Positions 11,901 to 41,900 are shown, numbered from the stretch's first letter. The stretch: DNA of 64,000 nt from Amoebophrya sp. A120 (GCA_905178155.1 CAJINV010000002.1:634422-698421), one strand, 5' to 3'. Notes: generated by a model from the letters alone, not told the origin. Numbers and translations are program-made.

Positions 11901-14900
11901 ACGTTATGCATTGCAAATATCGACGATCTCGGTCTGGAAGGGTGCAGAAGTTTGGCATGCAGGTTTTGGACGATGACCTCCCTGAAGATCTGGAAAAATA
12001 GCAAGGGGCTTAGCATCACAAGTTTATTTGCAAGGGCTTTTTGGAATGCCTATCCCTATCCCTATTCTGCATGAGAAATCGCGTCTCTTCAAGTTAGCCG
12101 AATAAATGTTGGGACAGCCTTTCATGCTACTCGTGCACGACAGATTTTCGTGCAACTGAAAGCGAGCATCACAAGTTTGCATCCTTCCAGACCGCCGGCA
12201 TATCAACTGTAAAAATGTCTGGGTCTGGAAGAATTCATGTTTGTCATGCTTGTCTGGCATGACTCTTAAATCTGTCATGCACGTTACTCAAGAACTCCGT
12301 TTTTCTGTGATGCAGAAGCGCAGTTTGTCATGCAGAATAGGCAACACCTAGGAGCTCAGAAACTTGTCATGCTGAGCCAGCATCTGTAGCCTCATCATGA
12401 GACGCCACCCAGCATCACAAGTTTCCAGACCCAGACATTTTTGCTTTTGATACGGCACATAATTTTTGCAAGGCATACGTCCTGATCATGACCATTGTCG
12501 GGATGCATTAGGTCTTTCATGTCATCTTTTGACAAGCCGTCTGTTGGGATATGCAATGCAAAAAGTATCGCACTTGTAGTAATTTTTATCGCTGTTATAT
12601 GCATTACAAATCTACTCCATCCAAAGATAAAACTAAAACAGCATAACAAATCCTATTTCTAATGCTGAGAAAATTTGTAATGCAATCCATACTAGTACGA
12701 TGCTTTTGCAATGCATATCCGAAAGCATCACGGAATTCTTGCTTCCCGAGGACGTTTATCCTGAGTAAAAACATCCCCACCCCAGAGTCAAAATGGGGAT
12801 CTCGCAACACAGCAGGTCGAGAAGTTTTGAGAGTCACGCATGACAAGTTCCTCTCTGTACTGTAGTGAAGTTCAGTAAGTGCAGCCGCATCAGAAAGCCA
12901 TCTACTCATCTTCCGGTTTACAGCATTACAAAGTCCAAAACGCGATTGGGAATGCTTCTCATGGGGATGCGCATTACAAATCTTCCTGTGATTGCAAAGC
13001 TGCATAACAGCTATGGTGTGGGGACGTTTTTACTCAGGATAACGTTTCCCAGACCCTCCTCAGCCTGGTGGTGTCCACCCGAGATTATCCTTTGTAAAAA
13101 CGTCCTCACCACGTCCCAAGATTTGTCATGCAAAATGGCATGCCTACAATGTTTGTCATGCGCAAGAACCTCGACATGAGGAGCATCCTCTGCAGATGCT
13201 ATGTGGCAAGAAGGTGGACTCGTCATGCTCTAATCCGGATGAGGTGATGAATTTGTGATGTCTCTTTACAATTACATGATAAACACGGTCGAGTACTTGA
13301 GTAGTTTTACACTGAAAGCACAAGGAGATTGTCATGCGCAAGAAGCCAAACTACCTTGTTGATTTGTGCAGCGAAAAAACAAAACATCTTGACTCTAGGG
13401 TGCAGCTGGGGACGCAGTTTTTACCCAGGATAGAGATGGCTTTGAACACATCCCGTGGTAGGCCGTTTTCTTGCCACTCTCTCTCTCCGATTCTGTATCC
13501 TGGGTAAAAACGTCCCCACCCCAGAGTTGTCATGCAGATTTGCCATCACAGGAACATTTGTGATGCGCAACCCCATCACAGGCATTTTCAATCGTGTTTG
13601 AGAACTTGTAATGCTGTAAACAGGATCAGCAGATCGATTTGTGATGCGGCTTTCCTTGCTAACTTGCACTACCTTACGCCGGACTGAAACTTGTCATGCG
13701 TGACTCCCAAAACTCCTAGGTTTGTGTTGCAAAATCCCCATCTTGACTCTGGTGTGGGGACGTTTTTAATCAGGATATTTTGCCGTCGCCATCTTCGTCC
13801 ATAGTGTTTAGGTCGCCCAAGGTGATTTTGTCGTCGCTTCCAAACTCTCGCGCCAGATATGCATTACAAATTTATTCCCGTACATGATGTTGTACAAAAT
13901 GCGTCACAAATTTCAACTTGTCATGCTGAAGAGGTTCTTTGAACGGAAAAGTTTGTCATGCGGAAGCCACATTTGTTCGACGTCGTGTAGTACGCGAAAT
14001 TTCTTGTGGATCATATCAGATGCCCAAGCGCAACCTCATCCCTGTTCAGACCAGGTTCGCCATCTAGATTCCCTTCTGCAATGTCTACACCAGTCATGAA
14101 CGCAGGCGAGCCGGCGTGTCCCTTTCGGAAGTCGGCCTGTTTGTTTTTTGTAGTTATAGCATTTTTGCATTATGCTGCATGCAAAGAAGTCTACAAGAAG
14201 AGATCTATCGTCCATGGTTCAGAAGTTGTGCACCAGCGGCCAACAAGTTGTCCTCCTCGTGGCGAAGATGCATCAATGAAGTAGCCCTAAGTATCTGCAC
14301 GTGCTCTACAGAGGTCGTAGGAGGTACTTTTTACTTTTGTATCAGGAGAACGAGATGTAATGTTGATGTCGAGATTGATGATGAAGATGATTCTGAAAAA
14401 GAATAAGTAAATACGATATCGTGAAAGTCGTCCGAGTCTCCGCCACCTGCTTTCCACTCGTCCAGGCTAAGCTTTCCGTTGCCATCAAGGGGAAAATATC
14501 GATCTGGGTCATCTGGAAGAGAGCAGACACTTCTGGTCGTGGGGTTTTTATTGCATCTCCAAGAGGCGGATCTTCGTCTTCCTCATGGGAAATGCCAATG
14601 CCTTGGTCGCCTGGGCACAAAAAAAAACACACATTTTTTACTAGTGGATTTTCTCAATAAAGGATTATTTGGCCTAAGTGATTCCTAAGTGTAGTCCCAC
14701 CGTGTTTAGCTTCAAAACCCGCTTGATATCTGGATTTTGTTCTGATTATTTTGGATTGCCCTACGTAGACCGGTGGCAATTTGATGCGTTCTGCGTATTT
14801 CCGTCGGTCCTCTTTCCAGCATTCCAACCAATTTAGACAAAGCCCAACACGAACGAATTTTACGGCAACGACTTGGTGCAAAATCTCGCCTACGAATCAG

Positions 14901-17900
14901 CGACATAGAGAGGTGAAGAACGAAAAAGGGCGACACGCGATCTGATTTTTTGCACGATGTTTGCACTAGAGACAGCTGCACTTTTATCCCGCCCAGCGAG
15001 GCGGCGAAGACGCGACGCACTGTCTGAGAGGATATCGACAGACCCCTCTTGATCAGCCCAAGCAAGAAGGGGCAACGAGTCAACATTTCTGATCCGACGA
15101 CGCAGACGCCACTGTGCACAACAGATCCGCAATTTATCTCATAAAACCGGTCCGAGATCTTCGCTGTTTTTTTGAGTTTTGTGCTATCTAGTTCTAGACG
15201 TGGATCTTGCGCGATTTGGGAAAGTCGCAAGCACGTCGCCGCGGAAGCTTTTGACTCGTGCCCTGCGTCATTATTTTTGGATTGGCGTCCTGCTGTTCAT
15301 AGCTCCATGTGGTCAGATTAAATGAGTCAGTTTTTTAGTGGGGGAATGTCGATCAGATCAATTTGCGCGGCCTTTCAGGCGGACGCTATCGCTTCGCAGA
15401 TGGAATAGGGGCCTCTGACTCTTGGGCAGCGATTTTCGTGATCGAGTGGAGGCATTGCCTCGGAATTCAGAAAATAAAGCATCTCGCTTGCAGATCTTTC
15501 TAGGTCAGTGCTTTCTCGCTGTCCATCGACACTTCTTGCTATCCATCGCAACATAATCTTTCGAGAAGATCTTAGATCTTGCTATGCGTCGAATATCTCT
15601 TTTCTTGTTTTTCCTAGATCCTCCTATCCATCGAGAACGACCCAAGCTGCCACGGGCAGCACTCGAGTCCTGAATGCCACGGCATCATCGAAACACCCCG
15701 GATCCAAGATCCAACGCCCCTTCAGAGACTGCGCCATACTCATTGAAAACCACTTTCTTAGCAGGCGAACCGGCAGGACGCCCTTCGTGAGCGGATTTTC
15801 ATTTTCTGAAAATTTATTTGGGTAGAGCCGAAGCCGAGTCTAGGAGCCGACTCATCGACCACGAGAAGGCTTACTTTCCAGTGTTAACGACCTAGCGAGG
15901 TCAGCGATCTACTTATTGCAGCGTCTTCACCTACCTCTTCAGACCCGCGGTCAAGTGCTTCCAGCATCGGCTGAATTCGCAGAGGTAGCTCGTGTAGAGA
16001 ATTTTGTCCCGTAGATCGTTGCCTGTCCAGTTTTCACCACGGCGAACGTCGAAAACTTTGCGGCAGTTTGGCGCTGCTTCGGGGTTTTTCGTCATCCGGG
16101 TCCGCATTCGCACGAAGAACTCCAGGGCGTTATCTGAAAAAAATTGCAGGTCGCACTTTTTCTTTGTTGCCGTCGTCGCGACGTTTGGGTAGTCCGGACG
16201 GAAGCAAAGATTGAGGGTGCGACGTGGGCCACCACCAAACACCAGCGTCGATTTCGATGCAACGCGCAGGCACCCCGGCAAACGCTCCGCTTCCGGGTCG
16301 CGGTCCAAGTCGTATGAACCCTGCATCCAGAGAATGAACTTGGAGGCCGTCCAGACACCGCAACAATCCACCGCCTCCTTGACCAGGTCGTTTTTTTCGA
16401 CTTTTTCGCCGTTTCGCCCGCGCTTCTTGAACCGCGCAGCCTTGTCGTCTAGCTGGCTCCACAGCTCTGTCTCCGCGGCTGCGACATACTTCTCCGATTC
16501 CTTACTCCGCCAATACTGGTCTTTCTTCCAGTAGCGGCCCGCGTTTTCCGGCACCCGCATCAATGCCTTCGCTGCAGTTTCAAACTGCGACGCCGAGATG
16601 TGCCCGGTTCCTGGGAACCACTCCTCGAGGTCGGAGATAAAATTCACGCTCATCTCCCAGCAGCACACCAAAGTGGTCCTGACCCGATCCTGCCAAGCGG
16701 TTCGAGAACTCTTCACCGTGCGATTAATGAGCTGCAGCCGCCGGACCGCCACAGAGTCTGAATTTTCCGCCCTGCCTTTCGTTGCGCACCAACTGTCAAC
16801 CGCCTCACCTGTAATTGTCACTTCATCACGAATGACGTCGCCATCCAACCGCGGGTCATCACTCGTTTCCCAACACCCGAGCTTGCGGTAGACCGGGACG
16901 ATGATCGTCTCGCCAGCAGGCGGAGAAAGCGTGGCGGCTTCTGGGTCTTTTTCTAGGCGAAGCAAAAAGTTGCACCACCTCTCCTCGACGAAGAAAAATA
17001 GAGGCCAGAAGTGGTCCGCCTCTGGTGCGAATAAAACATCGCGGGGTGTGCCTGTGCCGGCCATGACGGAAGTCGGCTAAGGCAGAGGTCACTCATAGCA
17101 CTAGCTCACGCCAAGGCAGAAGTCAGGTAGCGTGACAGCCTCGAAAGTAGCCTCTTGGGAGAGCAACGATGGATGGAAACGAGCGGCGGAGTCATATTGT
17201 TCACTATCAATACCAATTTTTTGAACTACGAACCTGCCTTCAACACTGCAGCGCATGGATGTTGCGCGTTTCCAGCCGCCACCCCACTAGTAGCCGCGCG
17301 TTTACTGTAGCACGAGCCAAAAAGTCACGCGGTGGTGTAGTGTTTTGCCGGTTAGTTCGTATCTGTCTCGTGCAGTATCTCTATCTTGTTCTTTCTTTGG
17401 ATCTCGTGGCATCATTGCAAGGTGACGAAGAGAAAAGAACGAAAACTAACGCACGAGAAAACACAAAGGCCAGAACCAGCGCACTCTCTGGCCAGGATTC
17501 ACTGCGATCCAGAAAGAGGTGGCCAGAAGGAGCAACCTTTTGTTACGAACACGCAGCCCGTCGGTCGGTGGTAAGGTTACTTACAAAGGCTTTTCTAGAA
17601 AGAAGGCGCCAGGGCTGCCTCCGGCGTTTTGTTTTCATCGTAAACTTTTCCGTCATGTGTATGCTTGTGTCTATGCCCCGGTGAGTTGATTCGTTCATAT
17701 CATGTGGACCCATTTATTTCTCGTTTTTTCTTTTTTGCTTTTGTTCTTACGCAGGACTTGTTTTTTTTTTGCCCTGCTATCTTTCCTCATAAATTTTTTA
17801 TATCTTCAACATAGGAATAAATATAAATATATCATTTACTGATGCTTTACTTCTTCCCCCGAGGCCTCGGGTTCTGCTTCGGGTTTTTCAGACAGGACGA

Positions 17901-20900
17901 CTGCTGCCTGCGAGAGTGCGACGTCGATCCCTAGGTCTGTACGATCGACCTCATCAATTAATTTTAGGCTTTTATCACTTCTACGACCTTCTTTTTCAAA
18001 TTCAATTGATTCTCCTGCTATTCATCGTATTAAAATAGTTTGGAAGTAGCGTTTGCACCTCAATCCAGCTTGACAACTACACGCCCCGCGTCACATTTCC
18101 AAACTCCGTCCGCCGACAACGCGAGGCGCCACGGCGCGGCGCCCACCGGCGCGAGGGAGGGGACGGGGAAAACAGAAACGGGCGCCCGCTGGCGCAGTCC
18201 CAGCGAGCGTGGGGGCGCCCTCCCTTTAGCAGGTTCGGGCGCGTGAGTTTCTGCCGGGAGGGACAGACAGGGCCGTGACTGGGTTCTGGGCTGCTAGACC
18301 CGGAGATGGGCGGCCCGAGCGGCAAAGCGCGCGCGAGGGGTGCGCACAGTCTTCGCAGGGCCGGATAAACCTCGTCCTCAAGGCGACCGCGACAGTGGCG
18401 CATTTCCAAGCGGTACGCCATCAGACGCCCCGCCCGACAGCTGCCCCAGCCATCTGCGAGTTCCGGTATGCTGGCGCTGCCGCCCTGGCGCTGTTGTTGC
18501 TGCATTGGCTTTTCGCAGCCAGGGTTCGCACGCCGCAGCTACCCTGCTGCGCGCACCTTTTGCAGCCAAAACAGGGTCTAATGCTGAAAACGTCAGCTCG
18601 GAAGGCTCGCGAGCTATCGAAACGGCAAACCGCTCGCGTTTTCCAGCTTTCCACGCAGAACGAGGGCCCTGCCAGTGCTTGGAGCGCAAGAAGTTTCAGG
18701 AGCGCAACACAACTTCCGCACGAGTAGAGAAAATTATATTTTTGAATTACAACGAAAAAGATCACCAGGAGCAAACCTCCTCCTCCTCCTAGTAACCACG
18801 CAAGAAATATTAATATTTTTCACTTTCTATTTTTTCTTTCATAAGTTGTAGACGAGCAGTCTATGGCTCCGGGGAGATGAAAACTCACGCTTAACTAACC
18901 TATGCCTTCAGTGTCCGCGATCCAGATAGAATTATTTTCTACTTCAATATATACTTGCAATTTTTTTTTTACTGTTCCTGTCGACGCCATCGCAAAGCTT
19001 TGCGCTTTTTTTAATTTTTCCTATCGTGCCAGCAATCTATTTTTTATTTATTATTTCTTCATCTACAAAGTCATGCTGTCGCCAAAGTTTGCTCTAGTTT
19101 CCAGTCTTCTCATGTCTGTATCGTAAATCTATCCGCTCGCAAATCAAGACTGAAATACTCGCTTTCGATCAAGATGGCGAGTATGCTGCATGGAGATGGA
19201 ATAGATACATCGCATGGTCGATCCATGAAGAACAACTCGATCCATGGTTATAGACTCGATCAATGGAGAGGAACTCAGTGGTCGCGCGGAAAAATAGAAG
19301 TAAGCGCTGAAAGAAGTCAGCTACTTTTTCCTACTTACAGAGACGATAGTAAATTGATGAGAAGTTATTCATAAACTAATCATATTATCGACGATTGCAT
19401 CTAGTTTATGATCAAATCATTATCAAATAACTTCAATGCTCATGATCATCGCGCTTTACTTCCTCTTTCCGGCGTGCTTCATCTTCATCTTCGTTGCACC
19501 TCCTTGATCTTGTTCCCCCTGCCCTTCATCGGCAGCTGGGTCCTCCTCCACCTTGACCTTGAGCGGATTCTTGTTCTTGGTGTTTTCTTTCCGCACCGGC
19601 GACTTATTTTTGTTTTTCTTCCCGGACGCGGACCCTGCAGCGGTTGGCTCCTCCGGGGCCTGCGCGACCGGAATCTGCTCCTCCTGCTGCTCCACCGCGA
19701 TATTCTTGCTGCTCTTGCGGTTCGGTTTCTTCAGCGGGGTCATCAGCTGAGCGTTGGCGGTGACGCTTTGTTTGTTCACCCGCTTGTTGTTCCGCTTGTT
19801 GTTCCCGTCCGCACCAGCAGCCTGGAACTGGATGTTGTCCTCCATCACAATGTCCTCCTGCATTACCAGGTTGGCCGGGTCGCGGGCATCTTTCGCATCG
19901 ACGTTTTTGCTATTCTTGCTCCTCATCGCTTTCATTTTCGGAAACTTCGGCTCCGCCGGCAGTCCGGCCCCTTCGGAAACATCCAACTCGTACCCAGCCA
20001 GGCCGTAGGCGCTGAGCTCCTGGTCGGTGTTGGTGGTGGTAGTGGTGGTAGTGGTTGTGGGGACGCCGAAGCTGCGGATGAGCAGCCTGGCCTCCGCCGC
20101 CCTCGACGGAGAGATGATGCCCATCCGCTGCACTAATTCGTCGATGTCGTCCTCCGGCTTCCGGACTGGACTGGATTGCTTCTTTTTGTTTTTGGTCGTG
20201 GCGCTCGGGGTCTGGTCGTCCAAAATCGGGTTGTCATCGATGTCCGGCCCCTCCGAGCCGAGGAAATTCAGCTCCGCGGGTTCTGCGCTTCCCTTCTTCT
20301 TTCGGCGACCCCGCAGGGCGAGGAGCTGTTTCCCCACAGCGGTGGTGTTGTCGAACTCCTGCCAGTATGAACTGCAAAAGTAGCGCACTAGTATAAATTG
20401 CATTACAAATCGGCTCAGCATTACAAATTAAATGTGTAATGCTGATTTCTCTTAAGACCTAGATTTGGAATGCATAGCCGCAATTAGTACGAGTGCGATA
20501 CTTTTGCACAGGATACCCAGTGCGGGAATTCTGGGATTATGTCGGAGAAATCCCGCTCCGTCGCGGTGATTTTCACCCTGATTTCCTCCGCTTTTTTGTA
20601 GTTACCTGTTTAGATTCACAAATTAATTGAAAACTTGCAGCCCATGTAGGAGAACTCACACTGAGACTCAAAAGTTGAAAACTTGAGTTTAGATTCAAAA
20701 ATCTAAAGTTGAAAACCCTACAAGTTCAAGCACAAGCACCGAGTTCAAGCGCAAGCGCCTACAAGTACCTACAAGCTCAAGTACCTACAAGCTCAAGCAC
20801 CAGTGCGAGCGCATTACAATTCCCAAGTGCAAGTGCGTACAACTTCCAGCACAAATGAAACCCTACAAGGGTACAAGATCAAGTACCTTGTTCCCCCAGC

Positions 20901-23900
20901 TCAACAATTTTCGCGATGTCCGGCTGCTGGATATCCTTCAGATGCTTCGAAAAACCCAGCACGAAGTCCTTCCATCCACCGTTTTTGCTCTTCGCATTGA
21001 AGGCGGCGACCGCTTTGTACACCTCCTGCCGGTCTTCCGCATATTCGGCCAAACTGGTGCGACTCTTCACCGCACCGACGCACTGCGCCAGTACGTGAAC
21101 CCACGGGTCGTACTTCGAGTCCTTGGGCTTGCCCTGCTCGGTCCACAACAAACCGAGCGGGGGGCAGAATTCCTCGTTCGTCCGCAGCTGTTTCAGCAAC
21201 AGCTGGTGCTCCGATTTCTTCGCCGCGCTAACCGCCCCCGGCATCAGCTGTTCTATGCACGACAAGAACTGCTGATGCCGGGAGAGGAAGCGGGCGGGCA
21301 AGAAATAACCGTCCTTGCTCAACATACATTCGTGAAAACCCGTCATACCATCCAGGATGGGTCGAAAGTCCTCCAGACCGTCAAGCAACAGGCTGACGTC
21401 ATCGCCCAGCCTCGACATCCATTCGAACTTCTGCGCCGGCTGGATGATCTGAAGTTTTGGCTTGGGTTTGGAAATAAAAGCACTGGCTCCGGGTGGGCTA
21501 CAACAACTTGCCTCGGTATCGCCGAAACAAAAAAGCCTTCGCTTGCCAACTAAAAACAAGCTTTTTACTGTCCAAGTAGGTGCGGCACTAGAATTAGAAA
21601 AAATAACTTGTACAATTTGCTCCGCTTCCATTCCCGGGAATTCCAGCGCAAAGCACTGGCTCATCACCTGGGCCAGCGTGTACCCGCGACTCGTGATCCG
21701 CCTGCAAATTTCCGGCAAACCCACCAGCTCCGTCTGGTTCCCAGTAGCCAACACTTTCTGGCACAGTGCTTTGTGCTCTGCTTTGATTTTTCGCACAGTG
21801 TCCTCATACCGCTCGTAGGTCTTGGTGGGTCCACGGTCCGCTTCGGCCAACTTCATCAGCAACGCGGCTAACTGTAGGAGAGGGTTGTACTATTTGATTT
21901 ATTTCCGAAACAAACTCCTCATGGTGTTTCTGGAAAAGTATTTGATTGGAAAAGCAACTACCGGCCGTACCGAAGAGCCAAAATTCTAAATCCTACCCGA
22001 GACCATTCCAAAACTAATTCGTAGAAGTACCTCTTCTTTCTTCCCACCGGCCGTCACTTGCGTATTCGTCTGCCCCACGAGCTGCTGCTGCTGCTTATTC
22101 TGCAAAATCGACTGCTTCTGCCCGAGCTGCTGCTTCATCGGCTTCACCGTCGTTGTACTTTTCAGCTTCTTCCCCTTCTCTCCATCATCCTCTTCACCAC
22201 CTTCTGGAGCTTCGTGTCCGCCTTCGAAAAGCTTTTTCGTAAGGTTCTGCGGCGTCACCGCAGCCGCGAGGTTGGACGGCGCTGAATTCGCAGGAGCTTC
22301 GGTGGGGGGCTCGTTGTCCTCCGCGTGCTGTTTTCATAGTTTGCAATTGTTATATCAAAGCTTGGCTATGCGCAACAAGTAGCAGCATGCTTATATTTAT
22401 CGGGGGCGAAAAAAAGGTTTGAAGATATGAAAAAAAACTCATATGACAAACAGCCGAAGAAAGCGAACGATGTGATGATGAGCGAATATTTTTCCCAAAG
22501 CAACAAACTAACCCACCTGCGGCTCGCCCTGCTCTTCCTCCTCGGCCTTCACCCGGTCCATGACCAATTTCCGGATGATCCCCCTCCGCGCTTTTTCTAT
22601 CCCGATCATACCGGGCAAGATGGTCGTGGTTTTTCCCTCTTCCAGCTTCATGCACAGCCGCTGGTAGTACGGCACGTCGAAGACGGACTTATTGGTCAAT
22701 TCGGCGTACGACAATTTCGACATTTGCTCGGAAGTCAGGTCGTACTGCAAGATTTTTTCCTCAGTCAACGGCTTCGCAGTGTACTGCTGGATGTGCGCCC
22801 AGGAGATGTCGGTCCACTGGTAGAAGTTCCCGTCCGAGCCCTGCAAGTACTTATGGACGGGACTGCTGCAGAGGGGATCAAATTGCTCCATATAGAAGCC
22901 TATCAACTTTAAAAATGTCTGGGTCTGGAAGATTCTGACACTTGTCATGCACGTTTTGCATGAGCCATGATGTCTGTGATGCATACCTTAGCAATACAGA
23001 TTTTTTGAGGGCTTCTTGATGCGTATTCCGCATGACAAATGCTTTCTCAGCGTAGCAAAAATTGCACTTCCTTTGGTACTCATGCAAGACAGATTTTTTT
23101 GGAATCCAAATGCAGCATCACGAGTTGCATTCTTCTAGACCCAGACATTTTTACACTTGATAAAGCCACTCACCGCGTCGTTTTCCTGGATGAGCTTGGT
23201 GATGTCCTCCAGGCGAGTGTTCTCGCCTGTTTTCATGTTATGGTAAAAGATGTTGTACAGCGTCTCATCTTCCACTGTGCAGACCAACGGTAAATCGTCC
23301 ACGATGCTGCTACTGCTCTCCACGATGCTGTTCTCACCCGCCTGCTCGCCCTGGCCATCGACCGCATGTTCCTGCTCCTGGTGGGAGGTATGTTCCTCCT
23401 CCTGGTGGGCCGCCGCCGCCGGGCCCTGCTCCTGGTGGGCCGGATTTCCCTCCGCCACATCTTCCCCGCCCGCCTGCTCCTCCTGCTCGGCGCCGGAGAC
23501 CTCCGAACTTTGCTCCAGGGGATAGTCCTCGATCGGCTGGCTGCGCTCCAGGGCGGCCTCCGCGCTCAACAGCTCCTCCGCCATGGTCATCTGCCCAGCA
23601 TCCGTCTGCATGTGCTGATCCGTCTGCACTTCCACTTGGTCATCCGTGGTGGTCGCCGGCTGCGGCTCCTGCTGCTCCTGGCTCTCTTCCGAGTTCATCT
23701 CCGCCTCCGAGTCATCCACCGCATGCAAAGATTCGTCGTTGTTACTATTGGATCCACCAGAAACCGCCGGCGCTTTCTCGGACTCAACATCCTGCTCCTG
23801 ACTTTCAGATTCCGAAGACTCTTCCTCGGATCCGGAAGATTGCTCTTGATTCGACTCCGGATTACTCGCCGCCGCTGCCGCGGGGGGATTGTTCATTTTT

Positions 23901-29900: not shown

Positions 29901-32900
29901 CTCTGCGGTCCCGAACTTTTGCGTTACGTCGCCACGCTTGAGAGCTACGTCCAGAAGGAGAGACACGCGGCAGGCGTACAGCCTCGCCAGCTTCCACGCG
30001 GTGTCGGAAGTCTCCCGCTTCAGCTGGTAGTTGAATGTCCGCACGCCGAGCTGAGACCGAAGGCCGAGGATCTTGCGGATCGACTGTCCGTACTGTGGCA
30101 AAGCGCACAAGACCGGAAGGTACTTGCGGTAGACCGGCTCCAACGGCTCCACCTTGACGCTCCTCTCGCTGCTTATTGTTATGGAGAAGCCCCGGTCGGT
30201 TGCGCCATGCCGAACTGTTAATCTCTCTGAACGGAGACGACGCTTCCGCTCTGCCGTCGAAAGCAAGTGCAGGTATTGGCCCCGGGCTTCCGGGATTCCG
30301 CGCACGGCGTCCTTTTCTTCACCACTCGACTCCTGCTCACTCGCGGAGCCTTCCTTCTCACTCGCGGAGCCTGGACCTGGGCCTGCGCTGCTGGAGGTGG
30401 CGGACGACGTGGCTGCGGACGACGACGTGGAGACCTCGCGCTCGGCCGCAAGCTTCCGCGCAGGCGGAGCCGCGTTTTCTGGCCTTTTCGATTTAACTTT
30501 GCGAGCCGCAAGACCGGCTACCTTTGGCTTTTCGGGTAGAACAGAATCCCAGGCCATCAGCGGGTTCCGACGGTTAGAACCGCCCAGACTCTTCCCGCTA
30601 TCTTCGTCGCTGCTGCCAAAGTCGATGTCTGCTTTCTGCACCAGCTCGACTTCGCCGCTTCTGGGAATTTGCACAGTAAAACTCTCTTCCACTGCTGCAA
30701 CGCCACCGCCTTCAAGCCGCACGGAATGAAGGCGGATTTTCTTCTGGTCGAAGAACCGCAGGCGGTTTCTGTACTCGGGTGAGCAGAAAAACGCGTCCGC
30801 CGCAAGTGTCTCCGGCAGTCGCACTTCTTTGAGGTCCTTCTCCGCGTCGTAAATCGGGCTCACCATCACGCCGCCGAAGGCGTACGGTGAGCGCGAAATG
30901 TAGTACACTAGGCAGTACGCCGGAAAGCAGGCAGCGTCTTTGAAGATTTTGTTTGCGGGGACGAACACAAGATCGGCGCTCTGCTGCTGCTGTTGGCCGC
31001 CGCCCGGTGCTGTGTCTTCCCCGCCGTTTCCCTTGGGCCGCACCCCGACGGAGAACTCGATCAAAATGGCATTTTCGGGTCGGGAGGAAAAAAACTCGTC
31101 AACCAACGGCATCTGATTCTGAAACAGCTCACCAACCTCCACTGCCTCGCGCCGCCGCTCCTGCACTTCGTATATCCAGGCCGCAAGCTTTCCCCAATTC
31201 TCTTTACATGACCGGGAGGTTTGGACCCAGGCGCATAAGCGCTCGACCCCGGACGGTGGAAAGCGGTACAACTCCGTCGCGACTATGCCGCGGGCTTCTT
31301 CCAGGCCCGGGATTTTTTCGCCATACAACCGCGCCCGCAGATCATCGCGCTGCTCGCTCTTTTTGTACTGCAGCTCCGGGTTCTTGTCGCTCCTGTGTGC
31401 CTTCTTGCGTTTATTCTGTCCCGTCCCCACGTTGGCGTAGAAGTGGAGCTTCGTCAGCTCTTTCAGTTTGCTGTAGTACCGCAGCTGGCATGATGCGCGG
31501 TCATCTCTCTCTATTTCAGCCCGCACACGCTTCTGTCTCTCCGCCCAGTAATCTGCCTCCGCTTTTTCCTGCGCCTTCACCTGCTGAACCCGCAGCTGCT
31601 CGACCTGCTGCTGCAGATTGACGCGATCCTTATCCATCTCCTCTTTAAACTATGAAGTGCAAAAGTATCGCACTCGTGCAAATGCATTACAAATTTGAAT
31701 TTCCTCAGCATGAAAAATAAAATAAAAATTTGTAATGCGCATTTGCCTTAAGAAAAACATTTGTAATGCATGATTGCAATACGAGCACGATACTTTTGCA
31801 CAGGATATAAACTTCTGGCCAACAATGCCCGTTTTCCCTTTTTTGTACAAGTTCGAAACACTGACGACGCGCTTCTTCTTTGCAAGCTCTGCAGCAGTGT
31901 ATCCGCCCGGAAGGACCGGCGACTTCGATGTGGAATCGGATCGCTCTGACTCGGACTGCGATAACAACTCCGACCCAGATGAGAGATCCGGATCGAAATC
32001 GCCGTCAGAGGGCTCGCTTCCGTATTTCTTGTAGTCCTTCGCATTCAAGCGCCCCCGCAAGGCGTCCTGCCGGATGAGAATGGAAGAAATCCGCAGTATG
32101 CCACGGTAGGCAGACTGGAACTCCTGCTGCAGCAATTTCCCCCGTCCTAGCTTTTGTTCTGCGGTCGCCTGCGTTCTCGGGCACTGGCACATCCCAGCCA
32201 GTACCATGTCAACGAATTTTACTCGCCGGCTGTGATCCGAGATCCGAAGCAACTGCTTCCTCCAGATGGTCAAACACACAGAGCCGCACGAATTCTCTGG
32301 GAACTCGGGAGCGTGGAAGAGGAATTTGCGAAGATAGGTGGAGCGCTGAGATTCCTGGCCCGCTTCCGGTGAACCGTTATCCAAAGCCGCGGCGGTGTTG
32401 TATTCGAGACAAAACTTCTGGAACGGGCAGCGATCAACGCTTGCGATGATCATGTGGAACATGACCGCCTCCGCAACGAGGGCGTGCTGCGCCTTCGCGA
32501 GTAGGTCCTTCTTCTTTTCCATCGTCAGGAGAGCTTCGCGCAGCGTCACAAACTGCATCTCCTCCAGAATCTGCGTCTCCTCTTGCAGGACCTGAAACGC
32601 TTTCCGAAAGCGTTTCTCGGCTGTCCGCTGAAGCTCCACGTTGGTCTCGTAAGTGTGCCGCTTCTTCAGAAACGAGAAGCTCGAAAAATCGTCCAGCGGG
32701 TTGGCAAGGTACCCGAGCAGAAGATGCGCGACTCTGTAGCAGGCATGCTGCAGCCCTTTGTTGTTTTTCACCAACTTCCACTCCTCGACCGAAAGGTAAT
32801 GTGGAGCATTGTCGCCCGCGGAAAAGATCATTTCTGTGTACCCGAGTGCGTCAATCACGGCCAGACGGCGGCAGGCGCGACCAAAAGTCAGCCACCTTTG

Positions 32901-35900
32901 GTGGGTGGGCTGCTTCAGCAGTCTGTACAAGGCTACCCAGGCCTTGACAACGTTTGTTTTCTGTTCCTTGCTCTGCACCGATATTTTCAGCGGGACACCG
33001 TCTCCACCCGGGTCCAGCTCCACGTATGCGTCCTCCATTGCTTTCGCAAGATCCCGCTCACGCATGTGCTCCAGGAACCGGCTCCAAGACCCGATGGCGT
33101 GTTGGTTCTTTAGCCTGTGCGCCGCCTCCTGTCCGGGCAGGCCGTTATAACCCGGCCGAATCTGCACAACCTTGTCGGCCTGCTTCTCTACGATCTCGCG
33201 AACGGTGGCAGAGCTCATGTTCATCTGCCTCGCCTGCAGATACGTCTTTTTCTCAATGAGCGGCATGTCCAGCTTCGTCGTATCCAGTGCAAAAGCGTCT
33301 GGGTCTGGAAACGTGGAACTTGTAATGCTGGTCTTGTAATGCTGGCTTGCAGTTGCTCCCCGGCATAACCAACAAAAGCTGCAACTGTTCTTGTCATGCA
33401 GAAAAGCAATCTCTCACGCTGGCTGCCTGTGAGAAAACGTTTTAGAAAGTTTTCACGCTTGGCTGCATTCACAGCTGTTTCCGTCACCCACGTTTTAGCA
33501 TCACAAGTTTCTTTTCCAGACCCCGAACTAGATATCTGCAATGCATACGTTGTAGTTCCGAGTAACTGCGAGGCGTGCTTGCCGATGTTCGCCGTGCTGT
33601 GCTCGTCGCAAGGTACAAAAATCGGCAACCACACCAAGGCTGGGCACTCCCGCTCCATACGATGCTCGACGATGAGGATGGAGCACATTACAGTTGCGCT
33701 TTCGGCGCCATCGCCGGAAAAGATTGCGGCAAAGGGGTCGGAAATACCATTGAACTCTAGTCCGTACGACATCACGGTGTTTGCGAGGCGGACGGCATCG
33801 CGCTCGTGCGGCAAAAGGTCCGGGTGGTGGCTCAAGCGATGCGGGGGCTTGTAGTGGATGTGTATCGGAAGGTTCGGAACCCGTGGCCATTTATTTGGCT
33901 CTTCCCCGTCGACAGCAAACCAGCAGCTGCCGTGGCAGACCGTCCACATTGCGCTCGGGTTGAGCGTCCGCTTCTTCGTCCTGGTGCCCCTCGACGTTCC
34001 GTCAACGCAAAACCGCGTCATCACTGCGCACTTCCCTGCAATTTTGTATGCTTCGCGCAAAGCTTTGGGACTTGCTGTGACCGCGAAGTCACTCAAAAGC
34101 ATCGCAGTCTTCAGGTACCCATCCGTTCGGGGGTTGCTGCGGTAGTTGAAATACTTCTCGACATACCTGCGGATCTTTTTCTGCTTTTTCTTCCGCCGGC
34201 GCTGCTTCGACATCCTGCAAAACCTCCCCATCTTGTTTCGTTTTGTTTTCCGTTTACGCGGCGCTATCTCACAGAAATTTGCTAGCTTATATGAATCTGC
34301 TTGCTGACTCCCGCAGGACAAAGACGGCTGCTGCTGCTCCCCATGCATGACTGAAGTGCGAAGTCCAAATCGTCCCGGGTCTGCATTACAAGCTGCAGAT
34401 AATTCCTATTGTTTTGGAGCACGCAGGTGATGACCCATGCCCTATTCTTCACTTCGTTATACTTATATTAAGACTGGGTCTACAACGAGCAAGAGTTCGT
34501 TGCTGAGAAGCTAGCGTTTTTCTGTCAGATACGTGAACCGCCGTCGCCGGAGCCGTCTCCATCGGACGAGGGCGCTGAACTCAAAGATCGCGATGATTCT
34601 GCTCGCGATGCGGACCCGGAACTGCTGCTCCGACTGCTCTCCGAATCCGTAGAAGAAGACGACCGAGAAGTTTCTGACGACGCCGCCGAAGACGTTGCAG
34701 CCCCGAGCGCCCTGTTTTTGCGGCGCCTTCGCCGCTTGTTCTCTTGTTTTCGTTTCTCCTCCGCCCGCGCTGCAAGAGGTGTGGCCTCTCGTGCCCGCAT
34801 TTTTCTTCGCATCACCGGCTTCGCTTTTCCACCCGCCTTGGCGCGCGGCCGCGGTTTCCCAATTGGCGCCGGAGGCTCACTATCAAATGCGAAAATGTCT
34901 GGGTCTGGAAGACTCTGAGATTTGTCATGCATGTTTTGTATGACAACCCAGGATGGACGTCTGTAATGCACAACCGCGCATCACAGATTTTGAGAGGACT
35001 TCCTGATGCCTACTCCGCATGAAAGAAGAACGCCCTCCCCGCGTAGCACGAACTACTAGACTCCATTTGCTGGCCATGCAATACAGATAGAGTCCAAAGT
35101 TAGCATCACAAGTTCCGATCTTCCAGACCCCGACATTTTTGCATTTGATACTCACCGCCTGCTGACGATTCCACCGAGGACGATTCCTGGTGCGCTACCA
35201 CCGCACGACGAGCAGCGGCAGCGATGTTTGCGAGCGGCTGAGCAGGGTGGCGGTTTGCGCATCCTCTGGAAAAACATCGATCTCCCTGCTTCCGGATTCA
35301 GGCACTGCCTGAGACTTCTGCTTGGCATCACAAGTCGTAGATCCAGACCACATGCATCCATGGAGACACCCCGGACTCGATACAAAAGGAACGAACAGGA
35401 AGCTACAGCTAATATACAAATAGAACAAAACTAATAGTGAACTTTGTCGACAGAAGATCCTACTACGAGTCGAGTGTGTCTCCTCTCACTGCAGCGAAGG
35501 AAGTCAAGGAGAGCTCCACCCCAATGAGCGGAGGGTACTGCTGCAGCCATGCCGATCATTCTACGGGCTATTTGCAAACTCCGACGCTCGCGAGCCTTCC
35601 GAGCGTCCGGAACGACGATACCGTCGCGCTTGGGCAGGTGGTGGCGCCGTCTCTAGCAGATCCGCGAACAAGAAGTGAGCTCCAGCGGGCAGAAACCCGT
35701 GTCGTACAGCCAGAAGGTCGAAAAGCGCAGACGCAACAAGACGAAACGCGGCGACCGCGCCTGCCTATAAGCGCGAGGGCATCTTATTTTCTGGCTCCTG
35801 GTGCAGAAATCGACTCGCATACTGTGACGCTTTTCATTGGCGTCTTGGAGGACGAAGAAACAGAAGTTAGCAACTATAGCGACCCTCTCACGCGAGGACG

Positions 35901-38900
35901 AGCGTACTTCTCTGGAAAAAAAACATCGGCTCTGGGCAAAAAAAAAACGCTCTGAGAAAAAACTACTCCTCTCTTGCGAAGAGGAAAAAAAAAGACACGA
36001 TAGCAGCGAAAACAAAAATCAAAGAAGGGAGGTGGAACCCTGGACCGGGAAAACGCACAGACAAGAAAACACCGGCGAAGCAACGCAGTCCCTGGGTCTA
36101 CCTAGTAAAAAAAACGTCGCTCTTGCCGAAGGGCTGCGCTAGGTAGCGAACCAACACGAGGCTAGCGCCCCTCCAATGACATACGAAAACAAAGTAGCGG
36201 ACCCCTCCAATCACATACGAAAACTGGCGGATCCATGCGTGACGCAAGGACCACTTTTACTTTACTTTAGGACATACAGACATTAGCTCCTGGCTCTGTA
36301 ACTCACGGACAGAAACAGGCACAGGAAAGCGATAGTAATCGCCTCGCTTCAATTTGTTGCGGCGCGACACGGGCGGCCTCAGATGAAATAAGGTTTTCAA
36401 CTTACACTTAGTATACAGCGGAGTTCTTTCGAGTGGTGCCCGGTGCATCTCTTTTCCTTCGGTAGTGCCGCCCTTTCTTTTTCAGAATTTTTTTGCGATC
36501 GAGGGCAGAAGCAGAGCTTTTTATTACTAAGCTTTTCCATTGGTAGGCTTGCTGCGATGGATTCGCTTTCAGTTAGTTTTGTTTTCGTGAAATCAAATTC
36601 AATCATTGGTAAACTCATTGGTATCAATCTTAAACCGATATGAAAACTCGTGCTAAGCGACACAGATATTTTTTGCTGTGTCTATTGTGGGCGAGCACGA
36701 CTATCAACCCACCTATTCCTATTTTGTAAACTTCGAGTCGCGATTTTTCTGCTATTCTAACATACTTCGACCACCAATAAACTATAGGCATGGCGTCACC
36801 TTATTAATTTTGTTCATCACCCAGATGGAGTTGCTTGCTTTTCGTAATTTACATACTTTTTTTTTCACATATAGCGCCACTCTTCTCATGATCCACTGCG
36901 CCGCTTCTTGCCGCTCTGTTCCGCCGCCCCCGCCACTTCTTGCTCCGCTTGTTGTGGCCGCTTCGGCGACCCGGTGCTGGAAGACGCGCGCCGGTACAAC
37001 AAGTCGACGATACCTGTGGAAGCAGGGGAGTCGTCCATTGCTTAGCACCGACCACATCCTGGAGCTCAGGAGCAGCGCCATGCAGCTTATTCATAGACTA
37101 CTAAAATAAATTTGCTTTTCTAAGTAATGTCTCTTTCTACATGATGAATAGGCCAAAAACAACCAAGGTAGTTTTAGCACCTTCCACCGCCCGCTCAAAG
37201 AGGAGCACTCCCTCGTCCGATATCGCGAGCGCATGCGCCTCCAACTCCACGAGGAAGGGGCGCAGGATGGGGGCGGACATCTCCACTACGTCGGCCAGGT
37301 CTGCCTCCGGGAGATGCGGTGTGCGAAACCGCCGCTGGATCATGTTGATCAGATCCGCCAGCACGACATCGTCCGCCACGGTCGGAACCTGTTTGGTAGT
37401 TTTTTTTCCGAAGATAGAAGGGCAGCGCGTACGCTGCTTTCATGTCTAGTAAGTAACTTACTATGAAACGCAAGCAATAAATGTGGAGCTCTGACATGCA
37501 AGTTAGTAGCTCTTTCATGTGGAGTTCTGAAACATAAGGAATAAAGCCTTTTCATGCTGTTTCTGTCATACGAGTGCAAATGCAGAAAGATACCCCGCCC
37601 GGGTAGGAGCGCGCTGCGAGCCCGGGTAGGAGCGCGGGTAGGAGCGTTGCGATCCCGGGTAGGAGCGCGTCAAGTGCGCCGCCGACCTGGGAAGAGTGTG
37701 AGAGTGAGTCAATTTATTATGGCTCAGTTTGACCACAACAATGTAAAAAGTAAGCGAAAAACACATGCAAAAGTTTATTGCTTGATGCAAAAAAAAGCGA
37801 CGCAAATCAATATAAATATTAAAAAACGAAGTGAGTCACAACTTTTGTCGAAAGTGCAAAGTTAGTAGCATGCTGCTAATGTCCCGACCAAGCAACGCGT
37901 CGTGGATCAATGACCTATGCCGAACGAAAAGAAAGAAGCAGGGAACAGATAGGTGAAATTAATATACTTCATACCATCAATCCGCCCTCCTCCTGCAAAT
38001 TACGCACTTCCACCGCAGAGCCTGCCGACGCCGAGTCCTCGTCGCGTACCTCGGGAAACGGCGGCGCGATGTACGCGAGGCCGATCGGATCGCCCAATCC
38101 GGCATCAGAGGGTGTATCTTCTCCAGGGGCGGGACAATCCGCGCTCAACGAACGCGGACGCGTGCTCGTGGCTTGCAGCTGCACGATGACGCACTTGTTC
38201 AGGGTGCACGCGTTTAGGTTCACGCTCATTTTATGTTGTTTTTTTTTAGAAAAGGAAGATGGATGGATCTAGCTGCTAGAGGTAGAGCCAATTTATATTC
38301 AGAAAACGAAGATCTAGCGGCGAGAGGTTGAGAAAAGGAGCATCTATTTGCGAGAGTAGCTACCAAATAAATTTATTATTATTGCGCGGCCCTGCATAAG
38401 CGAAAGTAACAGCGATGCTATTCTAAACGAAAACGCAGCATCAGGCCGGCCATTGCCAGAGCGTGCCCAGGATGCTGCTGCTATTAACAAATAAATTTGC
38501 ATAAGCGGTCGGGCTGAATCAAAAAAAGAACCGACGCATGCGCTAATCAATGCCGGGTTGAAAAAACAAAAAGTGGCCAAGCACTTGGACTGCATTGGAT
38601 TTCTAGCATAACATGGGGCTTGGCGTGCCGGAACTTTGGGAGTGCAGCCGGTTTTTTTCATGAATTAAAAAAGCTCGACCACGCTTACTGTACTAGTAGA
38701 GGCGGCCATCAAGAGTCAATGCTTGCACTCCGCCCGCGATACCTGACACGGACGTTCCCGGGCCTAACATACAAAACATCCATGCCTGGCGGTGCAAAAA
38801 AAGCGGGCTGACATACAACCAGTCCAGACGATGAAAAAAAACGGCGCTGGCAACGACGGCGAAAGACGATAGAAAAAACGCGGTCGTAGACGATGAAAAA

Positions 38901-41900
38901 AGTACACTTTGTGACGCTGTTGCAGATATGACGCCTATCACTTTTATTATGGTCCAAGAAACAACGCACAAGCTCTCTATCCACCAAAAAAATTCTCACT
39001 TCTACGGTCCAAGAAACAACGCACAGGATCTGTATCCACAAAACCAAAGGCACGACGGAGAACATCGAATTTCTTTGTAATGCGGGGGGACAGATGGATT
39101 CGTGAGCTGAGAAGGATGGACTCATTTGCTTCTTTCTGTTTTCTGCTGCTGAGCTCGAGAGCGAGAAGTGAGCTAGTTAGTTTGTCGCACGTAGTGCGCT
39201 GTGGATCGCATTCAGGCTGTTCATTTTCATTTTTCTTGTCACTCGCTCGAGCTTGGTTTTTCAGATCAAGAACTGCAGCGGGTGATCAGCGAGCTTGTTT
39301 TTTCAGATCAAGGCTGCGCCTAATATCAAGGACACAAGTCACAGCTGCTGCCGCTGATGCTAAGCTGCGCCATCGGATTCATTTGACACAATGACGGCGA
39401 GGGTGTGGGTTTGTTTCTGTGGTTAGCCCAAAGTAAGACACGTTTCTTTGCACGCTTCTCAGCCTCAGCCACCAAGTCAATCAATAAAGCGCGGCGCGCT
39501 ACTAGCAAAAATTGCAGAAATAAACTGTAGCTGGTGTTTGCGCGTCGCATATCACTCTGAATCAAGCGGGCGCGCAATTGCTTTCGCCTTCTGTTTGTCA
39601 AGCATCGCTGTGAAGATTTCGGTGCCGAGAATGAATGCCGCGGCTGTTCGACTTTGCGACGGACCCGAACGGCAAACCTCGTGGTTGTAATAAGTTTATG
39701 AATCAACTTGCGACGCAAAGAAATTCATTCCCATTCTCATAGTTTCTCATGCATGATGATAATTCAACGGGCTTCAATAAAGCGCGCTATCTCAAAACAT
39801 AATCTCGGTACCGCTCTTAGCTCGATTCGTGTTGTCGTGGATGCGTTTTCGAACTCGAAATCTTCAGCACCGCATAGGCTTGGTGAATCGCTTCCATGCT
39901 TCGTCCGGCCTCGGAGTTCGGTCGTTGGTTTTCCGTCCGGTTGCCGATTGTGCTGCGAAACTGCAAACGGTTTTCTGGAAATCTCGAAGCCATCTACTTC
40001 GAATCGATTCCAAATGAATCTGTTTGACTGTCGAGGAATTCCATAGTATGCGGATTTTTCCACGCCATTGCGCCCATTCCACGCCGACAACATATTCCGA
40101 CGCTGTTGCCCGCTAAAACGTACCTGCACCGCGCCCATACGCCCCGATTTGTTTTATTTCCGCGGAATTTTTGTTTCCGCTGGAGCCCTCTTCCGATTCA
40201 CAATTCCGCGGCTCTGCGTCAGCCGCGAATCCACAAAAACACTTAGGTTTCACTTAGGTTTTACTTAGGATTCACTTAGGCCAACACTTAGGTTTATCGA
40301 GAAAAACCATTACTAACATTTTTTAAAGCCGACCCTGACTATGCAAGAGCAGCAAGACAAATTATTTTCTGTTCCACAATGAGCATCAGAAGTTGTTTGC
40401 ATTCTTCCAGATAATTACCCAGATTGACGATATTTGCATTTGATAGTCGCCATCAGTGTCGTACATGCCAGCCAGGTCGTTCGAGCTGAGCGTATATCAA
40501 ATGCAAAAATGTCTGGGTCTGGAAACTTGTGATGCTGCGTCGCGAATAGGGAGTGCTCTGTAATGCACAGCCAAGCATGAGAAATATCTGCGCTTCTTTG
40601 TGTTGCGTTTTTCGCATGACAAACTGCGTTTTTGCATGACAGGCAAAAGGGTTTCTTCTTGGACACGCATCACAAACTTTTTGGTCATCCCAGACAAGCA
40701 TGACAAATCTCGCAGTCTTCCAGACCCAGACATTTTTGCATTTGATAGCGTATCGTGATGGCCGACTTGCCCCATCAAGTGCGCTTTGGGTTATGGATTG
40801 CAAAAGTACTATCGGGGTAGTACTATTAATTGCAATACAAATTGGGTCAGCATTACAAATCCAATTTGTAATGCGGATTAACCTTCTCGTTCTCCTTCAC
40901 AACTGAATTTCGTACTTAAATGCATAGCTGCAATGAGTGCGAGTACGACCCTTTTGCAATTCATACGAATGAGGCCGCGACAAATTCGTCCGGACTAAAC
41001 TTGTCATTCCTTCTATGGGAGTGCACAACTCGTCCCCCTCATTTGTGCCGGGGCAGGAGAAGCAATACAAGCATCGGCCTCGACGAGGAGATGAATGCAG
41101 GTTTTGCATGACAAATTCACATCGAAGACTGTAGTGCTGTTTTTGGTCGTCCCGAAAGAACTTGCCATGCGAATCGTGCAAACTGATAGATACTACTACT
41201 ACATGGACCACTGGGCAGTTTGCATGACAAACGAGGGGAAGTAGGGGGAGTTGTTGTCCACTCTCATACGATCCATCCAGCATGTTGATGGGACCGTGGC
41301 GTTCAAAGTCGGTCTCCGTCAGCTCATGATCCGGTCCCGCCATGAGGTGGAAGACATCGGGATCCCCTCCCTTTTCTACCCATTCTTTCTCCGAGACGTG
41401 GCCCGGCGCGCCATATCAAAATGAAACATCCCCCCGCCCAATATAATCAAAATGGAAATCTACGATCATGCGGGATGTGTGTACACAAATCGAATTTGCC
41501 TTGCGGTAGAGGACTGCACGCAGATCCCGAGCCTACTAGGCCGGGGGATTCACTTCGCGTAGGCGTCTAGCATGGCAGACGTCTCCTGCCCTGTAGGCCG
41601 CGGCCTTACAACATGATTACAAACCGCCCGCATAACGCGGCGGGCTCTCTGAATTTGCCGTCTTGCAAGACAGACAGGATTCATCGTGGTCGTTACAAAT
41701 CTGCATCGAAACTTTTATTCTTTGGAAGGATGCGCTTTTATAATAAATATGGAAATGGGGGGATTTTTCCTCACAATACGCCGTCGTCGTTCGCCATGTC
41801 CGACAGGTCGCCCCACGAGAACCGGCCGGCCGGGGCGTGGTTGTCTGCTAGGTTATGGATGAAGTTTGTGTCCGCCTCTTTCTGGTGCTCCACCAGTGCT

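Follow-up and report, generated by a model that had tools for sequence, protein, structure and literature searches.

Joining of an EF-hand-type gene in RNA across a 26-kb introner that holds a hAT-like transposon in Amoebophrya sp. A120

How are introns removed in Amoebophrya, where most of them lack GT-AG borders and where U1 could not be detected in the published survey of the genus (PMC7789003, in the part cited here)? The introners that make up such introns, which carry a direct repeat of 3-5 nt at their borders and, in A120, TAT arms, have no GT-AG and are removed with RNA support (PMC7789003), are ordinarily too short and too alike to tell proximity of the two ends from pairing between them. 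Here we report on a stretch of 64,000 nucleotides (nt) from Amoebophrya sp. A120 (GCA_905178155.1, CAJINV010000002.1:634422-698421; hereafter the window, with positions counted from its first letter), in which a gene for a protein with EF-hand-type loops is interrupted by an introner that is itself split by a hAT-like DNA transposon. The locus represents a natural experiment: the two introner ends lie 26 kb apart with four decoys of the same family between them, and the joint in the RNA is still precise. The surroundings are typical of the organism, as a simple scan found the window crowded with 51 TAT...ATA elements of 150-350 nt with 5-nt direct repeats, the signature of A120-type Amoebophrya introners according to PMC7789003 (TAT start, 5-nt repeats).

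The joint in the RNA and the split introner

The following features, all on the minus strand, make up the interrupted gene and its introner:

40446..44221, minus: 5' half of the host gene, 12 exons between ordinary introners; a repeat protein with EF-hand-type loops and a hydrophobic N-terminal stretch
44087-44221, 43651-43874, 41779-41926 and 41269-41408, minus: pieces of the 5' half backed by RNA (contig of run X4)
42800-42807 (8 nt) and 42451-42461 (11 nt), minus: micro-exons flanked by adjacent introners
40446-40450, minus: upstream copy of the 5-nt direct repeat, with the 5' splice site inferred between 40447 and 40446
40324-40445, minus: introner 5' part, 122 nt, with the TAT-type 5' arm
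14483-14630, minus: introner 3' part with the 3' arm, whose last base is G and not A; 156 nt (14483-14638) if one copy of the target duplication is counted
14478-14482, minus: downstream copy of the 5-nt direct repeat, with the 3' splice site inferred between 14479 and 14478
11700..14477, minus: 3' half of the host gene, with exons 14414-14477 and 14017-14135 followed by introner-separated exons; its 3' end is a model
14136-14413, minus: GT-AG intron between exons 14414-14477 and 14017-14135

The RNA evidence consists of assembled short-read contigs from one sample record of one study, and six of the 15 listed runs were compared with the window; mapping took in 13990-20340 and everything from 24700 rightward. 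Runs X4 to X7 are RNA by inference and not by record: their contigs skip introners and the GT-AG intron 14136-14413 and therefore represent spliced RNA. Three of them (X4, X5 and X6) were mapped at the left end of the intron, while X7 was mapped on the right part alone, where its contig stops at 41264. Raw RNA reads with the same species label (X13) matched an introner arm and nothing else and are uninformative on the junction.

The two halves of the gene are joined in RNA across 25,968 nt at the level of assembled contigs. All three runs mapped at the left end have contigs in which the exon ending at 14477 is joined to the exon starting at 40446; the exon is matched up to 14487 with one differing letter, and the letters that follow equal 40456-40485. 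One 1,592-nt contig of X4 spans both halves (14017-14135, 14414-14487, 41269-41408, 41779-41926, 43651-43874 and 44087-44221), and its two unmapped gaps of 116 and 126 nt correspond exactly to the modelled small exons. The first (704-819 in the contig record) equals three exons of 34, 39 and 43 nt, and the second fits solely with the micro-exons of 8 and 11 nt, which are thereby supported. The contigs of X5 (967 nt) and X6 (950 nt) continue unbroken for more than 900 nt past the junction, which leaves no room for a sizeable path entering the intron from the upstream exon. At the other side, the loose end of an RNA contig beyond 14017 equals 13824-13853.

The joined sequence does not occur in the window itself, even with up to three mismatches allowed. 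A DNA contig covering 13990-14696 runs from the exon through the introner part into the tip of the transposon with 0 differences, neither branching nor ending loosely at the junction or at 14638; this unbranched course over the downstream exon gives no sign of a joined copy in the DNA. A reading of this locus made earlier from the sequence alone had considered, as one possibility, that the gene is disrupted. This is refuted by the junction contigs in three of three runs together with the one contig that covers both halves base for base. The RNA search which that reading had proposed, run here on assembled contigs, thus found the junction in X4, X5 and X6, in the first of its two predicted variants, which keeps the upstream repeat copy, and not in the second. 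Likewise its intron, placed at 14478..40450, is correctly located, and the excised length has to be corrected to 25,968 nt (14479-40446 in the best register).

Three registers, 14478-40445, 14479-40446 and 14480-40447, yield the same RNA, and none of these three has GT-AG, GC-AG or AT-AC ends. The RNA keeps the third base of the upstream repeat copy, and the RNA paths branch after 14479. Comparison with the sister introners of the host gene narrows the register. Position 5 of the repeat comes from the downstream copy at all three visible junctions where the copies differ there (43651, 41926 and 14017; a fourth, 40965, is not visible in the RNA pieces), and at 41779, 14480 and 41269 the upstream copy supplies positions 1, 3 and 4. 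Hence, cutting occurs 1 nt ahead of the 5' arm and 4 nt beyond the 3' arm, and the register predicted for the giant intron agrees with the RNA at the sister introners.

Joining the halves keeps a 436-codon frame in the host gene model. EF-hand loops have 12 residues, with D or N at positions 1, 3 and 5, G at 6 and E at 12. A PROSITE-like pattern marks such a 12-residue loop at residue 232 spanning the junction, as the sequence-only reading had anticipated for the removal of everything between, and a second one at residue 316 of the 436-residue model. A Pfam scan of a single 46-residue host exon gave no match. In metagenomes a host exon matched three loci over 10 residues each, which we take as chance, and metagenome scans with this exon and with the element-end pattern found no orthologue and no empty-site allele.

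The proposal that a transposon sits within a degenerate introner with parts of 156 and 122 nt also holds, on the minus strand, and the direct repeat GTTGC/GTCGC is as described, with four of five positions identical. Both parts together give an empty form of 278 nt. Its nt 1-94 match the family copy 11504-11590 (72.6%, E 1.7e-8), the 3' part resembles the family arm in the last ~50 nt alone (E 0.047), and for nt 95-225 there is no convincing family match; since the likeness is confined to these two segments, the term degenerate is correct. Global alignments scored against shuffles gave z-scores of 6.9-11.4 for 13 typical copies and 2.9-5.6 for five others. A DNA contig from another locus carries the same variant of the 3' arm over 14492-14525. 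The element shares with introners the TAT-type inverted arms, the 5-nt direct repeat, the family sequence and the removal from RNA at non-canonical sites; a size of a few hundred nt without a transposase gene applies only to its 278-nt empty form and no longer to the present intron, which is about 100 times the usual length for this type. The terminal G of the 3' arm has a counterpart in the same host gene, where the introner 42467-42799 also ends in G instead of A; hence a wobble at the terminal pair seems to be tolerated.

Beside the joined mRNA, the downstream exon takes part in a second RNA:

14450-14990, minus: second RNA, covering transposon sequence, the introner 3' part and exon sequence without a gap, with a sharp end at 14990/14991

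Contigs of 541 nt (14450-14990) in X5 and X6 match with 0 differences and have no loose end, and X4 has two pieces that end at 14991, while the DNA continues past this point. The contiguity of exon, introner and transposon without any difference implies that the source of the RNA carries the insertion. No unspliced path through 14136-14413 was found among the RNA contigs, and the second RNA therefore most likely joins the spliced 3' exons. It is most likely a sense transcript starting ~350 nt inside the transposon, its strand being deduced from this connection to the spliced downstream path. By contig depth, which is a poor measure of transcript share, it makes up ~20-37% of the downstream path (8.26 vs 14, 13.1 vs 32.1 and 2.4-3 vs 12.2). 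A spliced-leader acceptor was rejected as an explanation for its end, as there is no AG before 14990/14991 and there are no loose letters. For the suggestion that introners are safe havens for large elements this is one case, in which the insertion is tolerated and yet not silent, adding a truncated transcript.

The hAT-like transposon and its transposase

The element that separates the introner parts has the following anatomy:

14639-40315, minus: hAT-like DNA transposon of 25.7 kb; GC content 0.52 against 0.47 outside; the interior appears to be single-copy, the ends are common to other loci
40316-40323, no strand: right copy of the 8-bp target site duplication, identical to the left copy
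14631-14638, no strand: left copy of the 8-bp target site duplication, identical to the right copy
40240-40315, no strand: right inverted end with 11-bp subterminal repeats
14639-14695, no strand: left inverted end with subterminal repeats; start of multi-copy DNA contigs at 14638/14639
26925-28904, no strand: internal repeat block of ~2 kb, an inverted pair of 11-bp subterminal arrays (27408-27473 and 27497-27638) without terminal tips, among 21-bp T-rich/A-rich arrays
34881-35150, 33281-33547, 31651-31807, 25178-25500, 24482-24726, 22901-23162 and 20366-20515, no strand: seven nested introners
29358-34231, minus: hAT-like DDE transposase gene, 1,479 amino acids (1,518 if the start is at 34348), delimited by a frame test
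15931-17064 (377 amino acids), 20879-21856 (325 amino acids), 19456-20124 and 25854-26213, minus: examples of the cargo open reading frames (ORFs) between 15931 and 26213, from ORF lists
22508-23896, minus: cargo ORF, 373 amino acids after introner removal

The inverted ends are imperfect over ~55 nt and carry 11-bp arrays; a 10-nt word common to near both ends was equalled in six of 5000 shuffles. A tyrosine-recombinase reading of this 10-nt repeat was rejected in view of the DDE protein and the 8-bp duplication. DNA contigs cover 14669-20340 and 24700-40286 with 0 differences and short breaks at repeats. The left boundary is bridged in DNA; at the right boundary the listed DNA piece stops at 40286. 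Other copies of the element end occur with different flanks in DNA contigs, which is evidence of past mobility only. RNA contigs of other loci (one of 987 nt at depth 41 in X6, others in X4) enter or cross element ends that match 14633-14664 and 40265-40318, which suggests further insertions within transcribed genes. The internal block 26925-28904 is possibly a relic insertion or a hub for transposase binding. In metagenomes the element-end pattern gave 0 matches, and a viral scan found none. As the 8-bp duplication differs from the 5-bp repeats of the introners, the transposon is, judging from these sequences, unlikely to be their mobiliser.

In a twintron, a splice signal of the outer intron is split by an inner one, which has to be removed first. 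The twintron or stwintron reading was rejected here: 122 and 148 nt separate the transposon from the arm tips, both arms are whole, and the transposon lacks introner ends.

The transposase gene is itself split. Its 1,479 codons are open only when the introners 33281-33547 and 31651-31807 are both removed with one repeat copy kept each, and the other three of the four combinations of introner removal run into early stops. D77, D174, C208xxH211, W356 and E601 are conserved wherever a homologue covers the site: among eight aligned homologues, both Asp, the Cys and the His in six of six, the Trp and the Glu each in seven of seven. Catalytic roles were assigned from the order and conservation of these residues, and the order is as described for hAT enzymes (PMC4763223). 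Structural comparison used a model of the homologue P0002 (mean predicted local distance difference test score, pLDDT, 65) and not of the window protein. Foldseek placed Hermes at ranks 1-5 with E values of 0.036-0.063, none reaching 0.001 or below, and in VIA Hermes scored Z 11.0-9.7 (for Z 11.0, a root-mean-square deviation of 5.5 over 324 aligned residues) and Tn5 9.5; the structural alignment reaches Hermes residue 609. Named Atlas matches were hAT-related at 0.82-0.85 and serve as leads only. Pfam gave no hAT dimerisation or BED match in the window pieces or the homologues, and a PDB sequence search with the transposase profile returned 0 matches. The protein is classified as a hAT-like transposase with putative cut-and-paste activity. 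Its relatives occupy at least eight diverged loci of Amoebophrya AT5.2 (P0001-P0007, P0011 and P0012; nine records, two of them adjacent) without Pfam annotation, and AT5.2 is the sole source among the homologues that were named; for the middle of the protein a word-index search found no homologue, and a profile search added one protein.

The other long ORFs of the element lie mostly on the host strand. The pieces of the cargo ORFs that were scanned had no significant match in Pfam, PHROG or NCBIfam, and Rfam also gave nothing. For the 377-residue ORF at 15931-17064 the word-index search found no homologue and Atlas was blank, and its single-sequence fold was unusable (pLDDT 32); a resemblance to a DNA-hypermodification helical domain is a conjecture. 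Close to this ORF, which lies near the element end, X5 has faint RNA cover (16838-17202). Elsewhere, RNA cover inside the element amounts to 0-4 away from introner matches and is low over the transposase gene, though such low cover does not prove the cargo to be silent.

Nesting of introners is found on a small scale as well, as the 573-nt introner 11905-12477 in the host gene holds the complete introner 12201-12452. Elsewhere in the window, the copies 50248-50553 and 56186-56500 are 87-93% alike in opposite orientation and 6 kb apart, and 56811-56958 and 57019-57168 are near twins. Upstream of the host gene, an introner-riddled gene on the minus strand (45400-47800) has exons that by their motifs look like a kinesin motor domain.

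Computed arm pairing and the probable route to the joined RNA

How could two ends at such a distance find each other? The arms at 40445 and 14483 are computed to form a duplex over ~55 nt with -53.4 kcal/mol, the terminal pair being a wobble, compared with -16.5 +/- 3.2 kcal/mol for shuffled arms (minimum -30.6 of 500). Nowhere in the 26 kb does either arm have a better site than its own partner, and the strongest pairings with foreign introner ends amount to -40.5 and -40.2 kcal/mol. Pairing with the own partner ranks first here but in just one of 13 ordinary family copies. Ordinary copies appear to be exchangeable among themselves and would depend on proximity, which is no option for the giant intron; its arms are orthogonal to the four nested introners of its family. 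In a folded mini-precursor, the transposon ends also pair with each other (-59.7 kcal/mol), nested inside the arm stem.

We consider it probable that the joined RNA arises by cis-splicing of one long precursor whose non-canonical ends are defined by arm pairing. An introner of ~280 nt would have been inserted into the codons of the EF-hand loop first, and the hAT-like transposon would later have entered mid-introner and left its 8-bp duplication. The polymerase would read through the nearly silent element, and the 5' arm (from 40445 inward) would ignore the four nested introners of the same family in favour of its own, far better pairing 3' arm at 14483; the inverted ends of the transposon may add a second, nested stem. 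The splicing machinery would then cut at the distances of 1 and 4 nt from the two arms given above, so that one 5-nt repeat copy stays in the mRNA, and an outward-facing start, likely ~350 nt inside the transposon, would give a minor 5'-truncated RNA. The cis geometry, the role of pairing, the order of events and the promoter are what we infer here, as opposed to the joint, the exon sums, the anatomy of the element, the second RNA and the open transposase frame, which were observed. In this sense the earlier idea of splicing across 26 kb guided by inverted ends stands as the best reading and is supported by the arm energies, the pairing itself being computed.

Several observations weigh against this reading or parts of it. 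The junction evidence consists entirely of assembled short-read contigs from one sample record, and among the RNA contigs there is no precursor that spans the intron, the cover of the element being patchy with a depth of 0-4 away from introner matches. The internal array 27400-27479 pairs better with the transposon 5' end than the other end does (-67.6 vs -59.7 kcal/mol), which weakens the case for a simple double or nested stem. The energies were calculated from 60-nt pieces and ignore co-transcriptional folding. The arm variant 14492-14525 is also present at the other locus mentioned above, and the private arms may therefore be the trait of a subfamily that existed beforehand and was filtered, and not the product of co-evolution at a later time. 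Furthermore, DNA contig depth is 19.7-22.3 inside the element (six contigs) and 28.1-30.8 in the flanks (four contigs), for which GC content gives no explanation.

This depth difference, a mean of 21.4 inside against 29.7 in the flanks (28% lower), is the starting point of a first alternative, mosaic excision of the DNA, which the sequence-only reading had not named. The transposase would remove the element in some nuclei and restore the ~280-nt introner, these nuclei would make the joined mRNA, and the others mainly the RNA ending at 14990. The intact transposase frame with its catalytic residues speaks for it, as does the low RNA cover over the transposase gene, and varied footprints could each be too rare to assemble and harmless inside an intron. 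However, the DNA run has no branch or loose end at 14638, where the contig enters the element by 58 nt, and a 745-nt contig of another locus also has a depth of 22.7; the tool warns, besides, that contig depth is not a share of cells. Moreover, run-on RNA from upstream, expected from nuclei that bear the element, does not appear among the RNA contigs, and the arms fit each other better than they fit any end within the element, a point that counts only for a precursor containing the element. We regard mosaic excision as unlikely.

A second alternative keeps the arms and gives up the single transcript. In trans-joining, a nascent RNA of the 5' half and the RNA started at ~14990 would anneal through the arms, and perhaps the transposon ends, and undergo trans-splicing, without the 26 kb having to form one transcript. 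The sequence-only reading had named this outcome, and it has gained a foothold with the second RNA, which ends sharply at 14990/14991 in all three runs, bears the 3' arm and feeds the spliced exons. The near absence of RNA cover in the element interior also fits, and arm pairing is equally good in trans. Against this, the listed RNA paths include none that continues from the upstream exon to the 5' arm, though a nascent partner might have escaped notice, and on the upstream side the junction contigs have no break. In addition, partial transcripts started in transposons are common and need no trans-splicing (bioRxiv 10.1101/2023.06.05.543741). Cis-splicing is favoured, and we consider the trans route improbable.

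Highly improbable is an artefact of reverse transcription, in which template switching between 10-nt near-identical stretches makes the junction in vitro: a hairpin with a direct repeat, as present here, is a known setting for such artefacts (PMC2923612; PMC8240250) and all data are contigs derived from cDNA, but the junction is the major path in three of three runs with the frame kept, the crossover lies in a 2-nt identical block and not in the 7-nt block that would favour switching, it matches the register of the sister introners, and no abundant template with the 5' arm occurs among the RNA contigs. Equally little credence can be given to a joined RNA from an insertion-free gene copy (paralogue, retrocopy or co-cultured strain) or to a misassembled window: contigs alone served to assess copy number and paralogues, and the right boundary is unbridged by the listed DNA contigs, which stop at 40286, yet the RNA pieces match the exons of the window without difference at either side, the DNA contig shows no branch over the downstream exon, both DNA and RNA cross the left boundary, and the perfect 8-bp duplication ties both ends to one insertion.

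Known systems and what the locus means

The intron shares the TAT arms, the border repeat, the absence of GT-AG and the RNA-supported removal with the published Amoebophrya introners, whose mean length in A120 is 240 nt (PMC7789003), whereas here 25,968 nt hold a full transposon. In that study, intron mapping for the genus was limited to 10 kb and the analysis to 40-1000 bp, and the cited part reports putative transposases solely in A25, while the window contains an intact DDE transposase frame in an A120-type genome. A later survey, as far as cited here, derived A120 introners from diverse transposons with terminal inverted repeats and filtered out introns that are alike through secondary insertions (PMC12130899). 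With hAT elements such as Hermes and Kat1 (PMC4763223, in the sections cited) the transposon has in common the 8-bp duplication, inverted ends, subterminal repeats and a DDE transposase with insertion domain, CxxH and Trp; it differs in its 25.7 kb with cargo and in a transposase of ~1,480 residues that has a long C-terminal extension and a gene split by two introners.

Large DNA transposons can be removed together with an intron, as described for soybean TgmR*, a 13-kb CACTA element that is spliced out within an ordinary intron with functional mRNA being made (PMC4219821); here, however, the host intron is a transposon relic without canonical sites. A transcript from inside the element into the 3' part of the host gene is also described for maize Mutator insertions, where two partial transcripts are typical (bioRxiv 10.1101/2023.06.05.543741, in the part cited), whereas the full-length joined mRNA is the major form here. 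A further likeness is to the nonconventional introns of euglenids, with end pairing, cuts at a fixed distance from the paired motif, non-GT-AG borders and a likely origin from miniature inverted-repeat transposable elements (PMC12501133, PMC11282704, PMC11170887). They belong to a different lineage and have a different motif, the longest measures 5,931 nt in one E. gracilis set, and the cited parts of these papers describe no nested autonomous transposon. A multi-kb, transposon-filled intron of the introner kind was not found in the literature searched, mostly by title and the start of the abstract, with subscription papers and supplementary length data little covered.

For work on the genus, gene models limited to introns of 10 kb would split such genes, and a divergent DDE transposase split by introners can escape domain searches. 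The locus yields rules that can be tested, namely the cut register in the 5-nt repeat, the choice of partner by arm sequence, and cis versus trans joining. In a more far-reaching form, which we put forward as a doubtful but possible extension, U1-less splicing would recognise nothing but an RNA duplex at the intron ends, measured with a fixed ruler of 1 and 4 nt, and the arm sequence would serve as an address code against cross-pairing, effective over any distance or even between two RNAs, with the 3' partner launched from the transposon end. If this were true, giant cargo transposons would find landing pads in introners with private arms, and the introners in the transposase gene would place the mobility of the transposase under the control of host splicing.

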